In this document: in pieces, positions 27,441 to 29,166 of the stretch
Position numbering within the stretch: position 1 is the stretch's first letter
How the letters are laid out: each line of letters begins with the position of its first letter
Made by a program: the position numbers and the translations under genes
From: Octopus vulgaris
Taxonomy: Eukaryota
Direction of reading: 5' to 3'
Length of the DNA stretch: 64,000 nt
NCBI GenBank assembly: GCA_951406725.2
Contig: OX597835.1
Span: forward strand, 35,464,001 to 35,528,000
The notes under the pieces: generated by a model
Told to the model about the DNA's origin: nothing
The model's database searches: none
The model's input: the letters and a program-made list of their open reading frames with translations, nothing else

Positions 27441-27551
27441 TATACACAGACAATGACAGAAATAAATAGACATACTTATAATCATTAAAATTTATCTAAA
27501 TCTGTAATTACATATATTCAAATTATTTATTAATTGTTATAATATGAATAT

Positions 27552-28570
27552 TCAATATTTAGTAGACAGGCCCTTTGCATTATTCAATGCAAGGACCCTA
27601 TTAGGTATTTTACTGCTCAGATGACGAATATCCTCCAGCGGAATTTCTTGCCAAATTTCATGCAGTCATCTCAAAAAACCTGGTTTTGAAGATGCTTTCT
27701 CGTTCTTTTTATGAAGTCTCCTGTCCATTATGCCCCAGATGTGTTCAATACGGTTCATACCTGGTGTCTGGCTTGGCCATGGAAGCTTTTTAATGCTACT
27801 CTCATCCAACAAATCTTGAGTCATTTCACCCGTGTAATAAGGAGCCCCATCTCCTATAAATAAAGAGTCTTCTTTGATCATGTCAACACTGGAGAAGATT
27901 GGAAGGAATCCTTTCTGCAATATGGACACGTATTTATCTGAGATTATGCTTTCCTCACAATCCACCAGTTCTAATCAACCAGTGCTCCAGACTGCTCCGC
28001 AGACCATCACAGAATAGCTGCCGTGTTTCATTGTTGGCTGCAATCTTTTCATATCAAATTCTTGATCACAGAGTCCAGAGCCACACTCGACAACTTTCAG
28101 GAAATACAGTAAATCTTGGCTCATCAGAGAATGTGACAGTGACCCAAAATGCTAGTGGTTTCTTCACCATCTCACTGGCCCCAACTTTTCTGCCCTTGAT
28201 GTTGGCTGGTCAAAGAAGTGGCTTACTTCTTGATGCTCTTCCATAGTAACCAAGTTTGTGGAGATAGCTGACAGCTGTTCTGGTACTGACATCAATGTGT
28301 TTTGCTATGTTAGAGGCCTTGCAATGAGGATTATCCTCTAGACTTCCCTTAACAAAGAGGAGTGTCCTGTCAGAGAGGCCCGGTTGATCTGGGCGAGGCG
28401 ATGTGGATTCCCACCCCTTTCTGGTAAATTGCACAGTCACTCTATTAACTGTAGAAAGCGGGATCCTAAGGGTTTTTTTGCGATTTTACGCTATGTTCAC
28501 TTTCAGAATGACCCAAAATACAGCCTCTTCGAAATTCGCACAGTTCCAAGGCTTCTTTTGTGCATGGCAT
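27552..28570 (-). pseudogene. Tc1 (DD34E) transposase pseudogene
   Basis: MPCTKEALELCEFRRGCILG..., KPLL, TFSDE, DGAP-(34 aa)-NRIEHIW, ending KGLSTKY*. Stops and frameshifts present. Confidence 0.9.
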
Positions 28571-28640
28571 GATTAAACAGTCACTTATTAAAAATATAAA
28601 CCGTTACAAGTGAGAATAAATAGAAAACTATGTTTTATGG

Positions 28641-29031
28641 AGTGGTTGTACAAAGTCAACATAACGTGACAGACCCGTAGAGGGAATTACACCACCGCTA
28701 TATAGCCCTAGGAAGCATCGACGCTTCCTGTCGGCTTTGACACATTTCCTCTGTCCTTATACTTGCAAAGGGGAGGCAAGCACCCCAACCAGCTAGGACT
28801 AGCAAACTGAAGATATGATGTTTCTGGGTCTTGCCCGTCATCAGTCCAGGCTAACGTGTCCCCGCTAGCGGTGATACTTGCCAAGCCTTCGAAAAATATA
28901 TCTATTTACAGTGAAATCTATTCACTGGTCACCGTAATTAGAAATATTGAATTTCTAAATGTCTCAAAGAGACATGAGCGGTGGTGGAGCGATAGAGTGG
29001 TTGTATAAAGTCAACATAACGTGACAGTCCC
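28641..29031 (-). mobile_element. Non-LTR retrozyme-like insert: 355-bp unit, 39-bp terminal redundancy, 9-bp TSD
   Basis: 28640-28678 is repeated at 28995-29033 (2 mismatches). GTTTTATGG occurs at 28632-28640 and 29032-29040. Sits in the Tc1 5' region and contains a hammerhead. Confidence 0.8.
28792..28869 (-). ncRNA. Type I hammerhead ribozyme with extended helix I, slightly decayed
   Basis: Minus strand: GCTAG..GGAC..TAGC CTGGA-CTGATGA-CGGG CAAGA CCCA-GAAA-CATCAT-ATC-TTCAG..GCTA GTCC TAGC. Core intact; mismatches at the base of helix II and in helix III. Confidence 0.75.
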
Positions 29032-29166
29032 GTTTTATGGGGTGTCTATTTACTTCTGTTATGTCTGTGTACATGCCTGCAACAACCGGCTATTTCTTCC
29101 CGACGGGTTTTTCGACCCCATATTTACACGCTTTTAACTTTATGTATATGTATGTATATGTATGTA

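Follow-up and report, generated by a model that had tools for sequence, protein, structure and literature searches.

Metazoan non-LTR retrozymes (PMC7229834; bioRxiv 10.64898/2026.07.22.740005), as described in the accessible parts of both sources, have in common with the octopus family reported here a non-coding unit of about 355 nt (350-390 bp in the mussel repeats), a type I hammerhead and a multi-copy occurrence, and both sources propose Penelope-like elements as their mobilisers. Retrozymes and their proposed dependence on Penelope are already published. The return of animal retrozymes to DNA has so far been argued mainly from co-occurrence and from similarity to pseudo-LTRs (pLTRs), whereas in the octopus family the ends of the insertions have been mapped. 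The latter also differs in consisting of dispersed insertions of 0.3-2.1 units; no sequence match of its unit to a pLTR was found, and the available sections of PMC7229834 and 10.64898/2026.07.22.740005 hold no mention of octopus. A description of the 355-nt family was not found in a literature search, repeat databases (Repbase, Dfam), subscription papers and bioRxiv supplements lying outside its scope.

The EN+ Penelope-like elements (Penelope/Poseidon, Neptune; PMC8557442, PMC3846280, PMC8969392, PMC11167929), to the extent that these sources were accessible, likewise show partial tandems with head-to-head inverted arms and an optional 3' tail that corresponds to a pair of internal RT starts. 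Their targets, too, are AT-rich or microsatellite DNA with short target-site duplications (TSDs), and their hammerheads also combine a palindromic helix III with one unpaired base following A9. The consulted portions of PMC8557442, PMC3846280 and PMC8969392 report partial tandems together with an inverted copy truncated at its 5' end, a tail of 30-40 bp at one end and TSDs of 8-10 bp; the second of these sources places the tail on one inverted pLTR and describes action in trans, while the excerpts of PMC11167929 ascribe the tail to two internal RT starts, with both strands cut and extended and with uncleaved RNA as the main substrate. The octopus family differs from these elements in the absence of an ORF, in a tail of 55-60 rather than 30-40 nt, in a very long helix I and in an extra A before G12. 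The Chlamys MRC1-type elements (PMC8557442) are likewise non-autonomous, of Penelope type, with pLTRs and head-to-tail copies, but they have 3' sequence in common with autonomous families, none of which was found for the octopus unit, and the MRC1 clade is described, in the available text, without canonical hammerheads, unlike the octopus unit.

The insertion considered here lies in a 64,000-nucleotide stretch of Octopus vulgaris DNA, the whole of which is called the window. Judged from its anatomy, it is with a probability of roughly 0.8 a single-armed and likely inactive copy of a 355-nt hammerhead retroelement (retrozyme), whose mobilisation is likely due to a GIY-YIG Penelope-like (Neptune-type) RT acting in trans and not to a LINE. 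The family gives countable end-anatomy evidence for such a Penelope route.

The insertion in a Tc1 element and its repeat family

The host Tc1 copy has terminal inverted repeats (TIRs) at 27445-27472 and 29043-29069 with TA on both flanks, and what remains of its transposase gives matches below the curated cut-off to DDE_3 (E 2.5e-5) and HTH_Tnp_Tc3_2 (E 0.003). A direct repeat inside it (28637-28678 and 28992-29033) is spaced by 355 bp with an identity of 93%, and over 39 nt (28640-28678 against 28995-29033) only two mismatches occur. The sequence GTTTTATGG stands at 28632-28640 and again at 29032-29040 as a 9-bp duplication; strictly between these target copies the insert measures 391 bp (355 + 36), the rest of the 39-nt redundancy being 1-2-nt microhomology with the target at both junctions. 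An earlier note on the window had pointed out the 355-bp period with its redundancy, which is confirmed at 36-39 bp, and the 9-bp TSD, which stands with 6-9 bp derived from the target, the figure varying with the assignment of the microhomology. Among the other Tc1 loci fetched (1,124 first-look candidates, 40 scored, 20 loci returned including the window copy), all 19 lack the unit and read through a single copy of the target site, their bodies being about 75-85% identical. The 355-bp unit is therefore an insertion into a Tc1 element with both TIRs, as had been claimed. The unit contains no frame of 100 aa or more (the longest has 65 aa), in line with the absence of an ORF noted before. The window copy is, from its sequence, an old insertion and probably dead, and its own worth lies in the clean empty-site proof of the 9-bp duplication. 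The features are collected in Table 1.

Table 1. Positions, in the window, of the host element, the insertion and its predicted features. Unit n corresponds to window position 28640+n; the hammerhead (RNA) strand is the minus strand.
Feature	Position	Strand	Basis or remark
Host Tc1/mariner copy, TA to TA, broken transposase	27443..29071	-	TIRs, transposase remnants
Left TSD copy; last base(s) microhomologous to site B	28632..28640	+	
Full 355-bp monomer of the hammerhead family; 28641 is the 3' end, at site B	28641..28995	-	RNA strand = minus
5'-truncated second pass, pLTR-like partial tandem, 36 nt (38 nt with microhomology)	28996..29031	-	
Right TSD copy, 2 nt inside of the right TIR	29032..29040	+	
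Predicted type I hammerhead core, predicted cut 28812/28811	28806..28850	-	Motif parsing and covariation
Predicted helix I arms	28845-28850 / 28806-28811	-	
CUGAUGA box	28838-28844	-	
Unpaired C	28837	-	
Predicted helix II	28826-28836	-	
Unpaired A	28825	-	
GAA (GAAA 28824-28821)	28822-28824	-	
Predicted helix III	28813-28821	-	1-nt loss and G>A in the window copy
Predicted extended bulged helix I	28775..28882	-	31 pairs, 95% of cells paired, 48 close copies
Zone of ORF1-only Tx1-like cassette insertion in relatives	28842..28880	-	Empty in the window copy
TATA-like stretch upstream of the insertion zone, putative promoter only	~28896-28910	-	
Fixed 3' end A, internal position	28936..28939 (unit 296-299)	-	
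Optional tail stretch	28937-28995	-	Absent from the 3' end of the window copy
Fixed 3' end B, internal position	28987..28996 (unit 347-355/1)	-	AC-rich, single-stranded in the predicted fold

The insert gave 2,828 first-look candidates in this 2.8-Gb genome, and exact family patterns matched 1,010, 394 and 1,161 times against 0 for the reversed controls, a few of the 394 core-pattern matches coming from other families; the multi-copy retrozyme-type family foreseen in the earlier note was in this respect recovered, at 1,010-1,161 exact motif matches. Copies differ by 3-18% from the column majority (median 6.8% over 85 loci), the window copy by 4.3%, and among the loci examined none forms a long array. 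The unit is short and non-coding, with one hammerhead per unit and one in the window copy, and parsable cleavage-to-cleavage monomers of 349-355 nt occur in three of 88 insertions, of which the longest arm has 2.1 units. The sequences support a real multi-copy, non-coding, hammerhead-bearing retroelement family of retrozyme size.

The predicted hammerhead ribozyme

Rfam scans of the insert, of the whole window and of 12 further loci gave no hammerhead family, and the assignment therefore rests on motif parsing and covariation. The core could be parsed in 79 of 132 loci, with C17 in 71 of the 79 and with helix III counted among them partly by construction. A GUC triplet, predicted earlier for the consensus, is found in 90 of 93 base calls across the family. 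The accompanying prediction that the consensus would restore helices II and III holds for helix III, which in the family is the palindrome ACAU-GC-AUGU (10 nt with a 2-nt loop), and fails at the base of helix II, where 59 of the 79 cores have C.A. The G10.1-C11.1 pair is G-C in 70 of the 79, with an additional C or U on its 5' side and an additional A or U on its 3' side. Compensatory double-sided changes occur among the 79 cores in three pairs of helix I (A-U to G-C in nine, G-C to A-U in 11 and C-G to U-A in nine sequences) and two of helix II (G-C to A-U in seven and four sequences), the counts being of sequences rather than events, with the changes lying across subfamilies; the 48 close copies show no double-sided covariation. 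These five pairs and the parsed cores speak for the type I motif with a long bulged helix I that the earlier note had described, as a prediction.

The folding energy compared with shuffles gives z = -5.3 for the minus strand and z = -3.9 for the plus strand. RNAalifold did not recover the catalytic fold, which in three copies lies 4-7 kcal/mol above the minimum-energy fold, and natural monomers are predicted to form an elongated rod that bears the ribozyme at one of its ends, the two 3' sites A and B lying in a branched head. The predicted energy of dimer pairing through helix III is -13.3 kcal/mol for the family palindrome against +1.0 for the window copy, in which one helix III base is lost and GUC has become AUC, with the core boxes kept. 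As helix III is broken, the ribozyme of the window copy is probably inactive. According to the available part of PMC4209133, hammerheads whose helix III is palindromic act as dimers, and Penelope hammerheads typically leave one base unpaired after A9. An extra base before G12 was not found described in the accessible portions of the hammerhead literature compared; the extra A of the octopus family is atypical and may lower the predicted ribozyme activity.

That the hammerhead-like motif arose by chance in a local duplication, or belongs natively to Tc1, would be in keeping with the missing Rfam match, and yet has hardly any probability left in view of the 19 of 19 empty Tc1 sites, the 394 exact core-pattern matches against 0 in the reversed control and the five compensatory pairs.

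Ends of the insertions and the route of mobilisation

The catalogue of ends comprises 117 locus rows, reduced to 88 insertions with 121 arms by dropping 29 rows as duplicates by sequence, about four of which are probably distinct near-identical copies. In 104 of the 121 arms the 3' end lies at one of two fixed sites about 55-60 nt apart, A (unit 293-304, centred at about unit 297; 48 arms) or B (unit 344-5, centred at about unit 352-1; 56 arms), and the 5' ends are scattered over the whole unit, none of the 121 falling at unit 166-176 around the predicted cleavage site. Fixed ends without permutation, which the earlier note had named as a refuting sign, were thus found in part, on the 3' side and not on the 5' side, and the free circular permutation suggested in that note is not supported, only the 5' end being variable. 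Head-to-head twin arms occur in 33 of the 88 insertions, 25 with A+B, none with like ends and eight eroded (binomial p 6e-8); the position-ordered subset has 17 twins (14 A+B, none alike, three eroded), and 16 new loci held out yielded three clean A+B twins and one possible B+B. The latter (L313:970-1523), which has an adjoining 79-nt piece starting at A, was counted against mobilisation by a Penelope-like enzyme. Both arms of the twins begin at 3' sites and overlap, and no poly(A) tail was found on family insertions.

Microsatellites adjoin 54 of the 88 insertions. Exact duplications of at least 7 bp (7-14 bp) flank 10 of 34 unique-flank insertions compared with 32 of 1,122 swapped controls (2.9%), and their absence from the remaining 24 likewise weighed against a Penelope-like enzyme. 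Flanks of (AG)n accompany 19 of 56 B ends against one of 48 A ends (p 2.6e-5); as the RNA at B reads CUCU, this preference suggests that target-RNA pairing assists priming at this site. The junction in the window, where the target has ATGG and the unit ATAG, fits such pairing-assisted priming at B, and the 3' end of this copy has no tail at all. The microhomology at B differs from the homology-free priming described in vitro for PAc in the text available. Arms longer than one unit number 45 of 121, up to 749 nt, a count inflated by the full-length query. The duplicated parts differ by 7.6% within one insertion and by 11.9% between insertions, and non-majority bases are shared at 29% within against 7% between insertions (53 loci); as parts within an insertion are more alike, both arms and both passes come from one source.

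A LINE-type TPRT that copies a circular retrozyme RNA from random starts, the route put forward in the earlier note, would produce permuted 1.x-mers with TSDs, and is compatible with the 9-bp duplication and 1.1-mer of the window copy, with the arms exceeding one unit (inflated as they are) and with the activity around the family of LINE relatives that we take to be Tx1-like. The starts are, however, fixed at two sites instead of permuted, there are two 3' ends rather than one and no poly(A) tail, and the twin arms both start at 3' sites and overlap, unlike the twin-priming inversions of L1, which makes this route highly improbable. Inverted arm pairs, a tail that may be lacking and insertion at microsatellites are hallmarks of Penelope-like elements.

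The unit contains no ORF with RT and GIY-YIG, and is thus not an autonomous Penelope-like element. It might instead be only the pLTR, or truncated 3' end, of an autonomous Penelope with an unsampled coding body, since its architecture is the same as that of autonomous Neptune ends and since vertebrate retrozymes are stated to be related to pLTRs in the accessible part of 10.64898/2026.07.22.740005. Such an origin is unlikely, as the 45 of 121 arms that extend past one unit lead back into the unit rather than into coding sequence, three monomers of 349-355 nt run from one cleavage site to the next, no RT was found directly joined upstream of the unit in 104 family loci with flanks of about 1.5 kb, and the only long upstream sequence common to loci is an RT-less ORF1 cassette.

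A GIY-YIG search of this genome gave 6,136 candidates, of which 150, a small part, were scored, and the intact 781-aa RT-GIY-YIG frames among the matches represent autonomous elements. No nucleotide match of the unit was found to an autonomous Penelope in 45 GIY-YIG loci or to another Penelope family in 24 further loci, and this absence of an autonomous partner among the sampled loci, together with that of an upstream RT in the 104 family loci, counts against a Penelope-like enzyme, as does the family tail, longer than in the Neptune families. In this genome autonomous Penelope insertions end at either of two sites separated by about 40 nt, and their twins are mixed in five of six inspected (L063, L084, L085, L086, L072); L071 is a same-end autonomous twin and again counted on the negative side. 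At least three autonomous Penelope families have hammerhead-like motifs with a palindromic helix III, identified by eye. Among candidate links, a Penelope family beside L006 was rejected as a partner because the 3' ends are unrelated, that at L030 because a SINE-like repeat lies in between, and those at L015 and L029 because they look like insertions into old Penelope copies.

Other observations concern the autonomous elements themselves. L081-L084 represent a very young element with a 781-aa RT-GIY-YIG frame, which we take to be Neptune-like because its endonuclease is C-terminal and follows a cysteine motif; it has a second ORF of 330-380 aa upstream of the RT frame, with a sub-threshold best Pfam match, its two 3' ends lie 40 nt from each other, and it carries a hammerhead-like motif that is degenerate. 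Minimal hammerhead-like motifs with a palindromic helix III, again by eye, are seen at the Penelope 3' ends of L054, L086, L195, L202, L207, L071 and L072, and in the L054/L086 family the base of helix II is an unpaired U.U, similar to the C.A of the 355-bp family.

Mobilisation in trans by a Penelope-like RT, the preferred reading, could proceed as follows. A locus longer than one unit would be transcribed on the hammerhead strand, and the palindromic helix III would pair two ribozymes as a dimer, such that multimers cleave and a lone unit is slow; the cleaved products may be ligated to 355-nt circles. A Penelope protein would bind the hairpin-rich head and nick AT-rich DNA with a stagger, and cDNA would be primed internally at A and/or B, aided by 1-5 nt of target-RNA pairing. 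With a circle or an uncleaved multimer as template, synthesis would pass the cleavage site, continue for more than one unit and halt at a random point, where microhomology joins the end. In the window copy it would have started at B in the subterminal region of Tc1, run for 391 nt and left the 9-bp duplication, helix III being broken by later mutations.

Arms of up to 749 nt cross two cleavage sites and none stops at one, from which it follows that the templates would be uncleaved multimers or re-ligated circles; for circles against uncleaved linear multimers the odds are about even. Direct and inverted overlaps are alike in the sharing of rare variants (6 of 127 and 7 of 121 cases), which fits, weakly, a circle or a homogeneous multimer. 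A steep drop of contig depth near the cleavage site in guessed-RNA runs was rejected as a signal because larger unlabelled runs are similar, and joints that go back 350-354 occur in both kinds of run and reflect genomic tandems. A more detailed scenario, which is tentative and probably not correct in full, is that a dimeric Penelope enzyme copies one ribozyme-made 355-nt RNA circle from both nicked strands, with one subunit at A and the other at B, the choice of target repeat at each site being set by short stretches of target-RNA pairing; ORF1-only Tx1-like cassettes would have in the circle RNA a constant insertion site, and could then travel by the Penelope route as a protein-coding passenger (L172). 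Why the Penelope tail is one-sided could be explained mechanistically by the near-strict A+B pairing, and the family is a small substrate for a direct priming test.

CCHC cassettes and other repeats near the family

In the position-ordered sample, four insertions (six of 26 locus rows) run into a common 1.7-kb RT-less cassette encoding a CCHC-knuckle protein, with an ORF of 440-480 aa and an AATAAA end. The cassette ORF has 35,113 first-look candidates in this genome (loci L156-L159 and L162-L191, e.g. L157:6440-8741, L165 and L180), and in 21 of the 30 best ORF matches the cassette is inserted a short way upstream of the hammerhead and flanked by duplications of 13-20 bp. Its own AATAAA end, these duplications and its occurrence at other sites and in stacks indicate a separate target-specific insertion, probably a half-Tx1 element; the name Tx1-like ORF1 is presumptive, a lead drawn in part from the features of the encoded protein. 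The cassette protein has a sub-threshold zf-CCHC match and a feature-level likeness to CCHC/ZCCHC3-like clusters, and no homologue was found at E 0.001 in a word search or among PDB sequences.

At L172:168-2470 a twin-arm insertion has cassette sequence on both arms, with one end near B and one at A, which implies that a composite RNA was copied by the twin-arm (Penelope) route, in one clear case among 37 loci mapped. This locus, a sign of at least one such copying event, and the presence of the unit ends at 21 of 30 ORF loci would suit a 2-kb protein-coding hammerhead element (unit plus CCHC ORF1) as the mobile entity, with the 355-bp unit as its deletion derivative. That the cassette has its own AATAAA end, duplications of 13-20 bp at shifted positions in different subfamilies and several independent junctions with the unit, and that it lies at unrelated sites in nine of 30 loci and forms stacks without the unit, leaves very little probability for a 2-kb element; a 355-nt retrozyme mobilised by a Penelope-like RT is preferred.

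Head-to-tail stacks of two to seven ORF1-only cassettes, with a 1.8-kb period and without the 355-bp unit, are present at L196-L199, L202-L206 and L214, some of them mixing divergent ORF families. At L181, L191 and L215 cassettes are followed by other hammerhead-like repeats, which suggests several target families. The window itself holds a degraded CCHC-knuckle ORF1-like fragment at 38347-39502 (tblastn E 3e-6, 214-aa frame). In a comparison aimed at an snRNA-type promoter upstream of the insertion zone, alignments of five U2/U6 upstream regions with one family copy gave p 0.003-0.22 in sense, with antisense controls alike (p 0.003-0.38). At L288:1400-1500 a U2 snRNA gene has its upstream region replaced by a retroelement-like 3' end with AATAAA.
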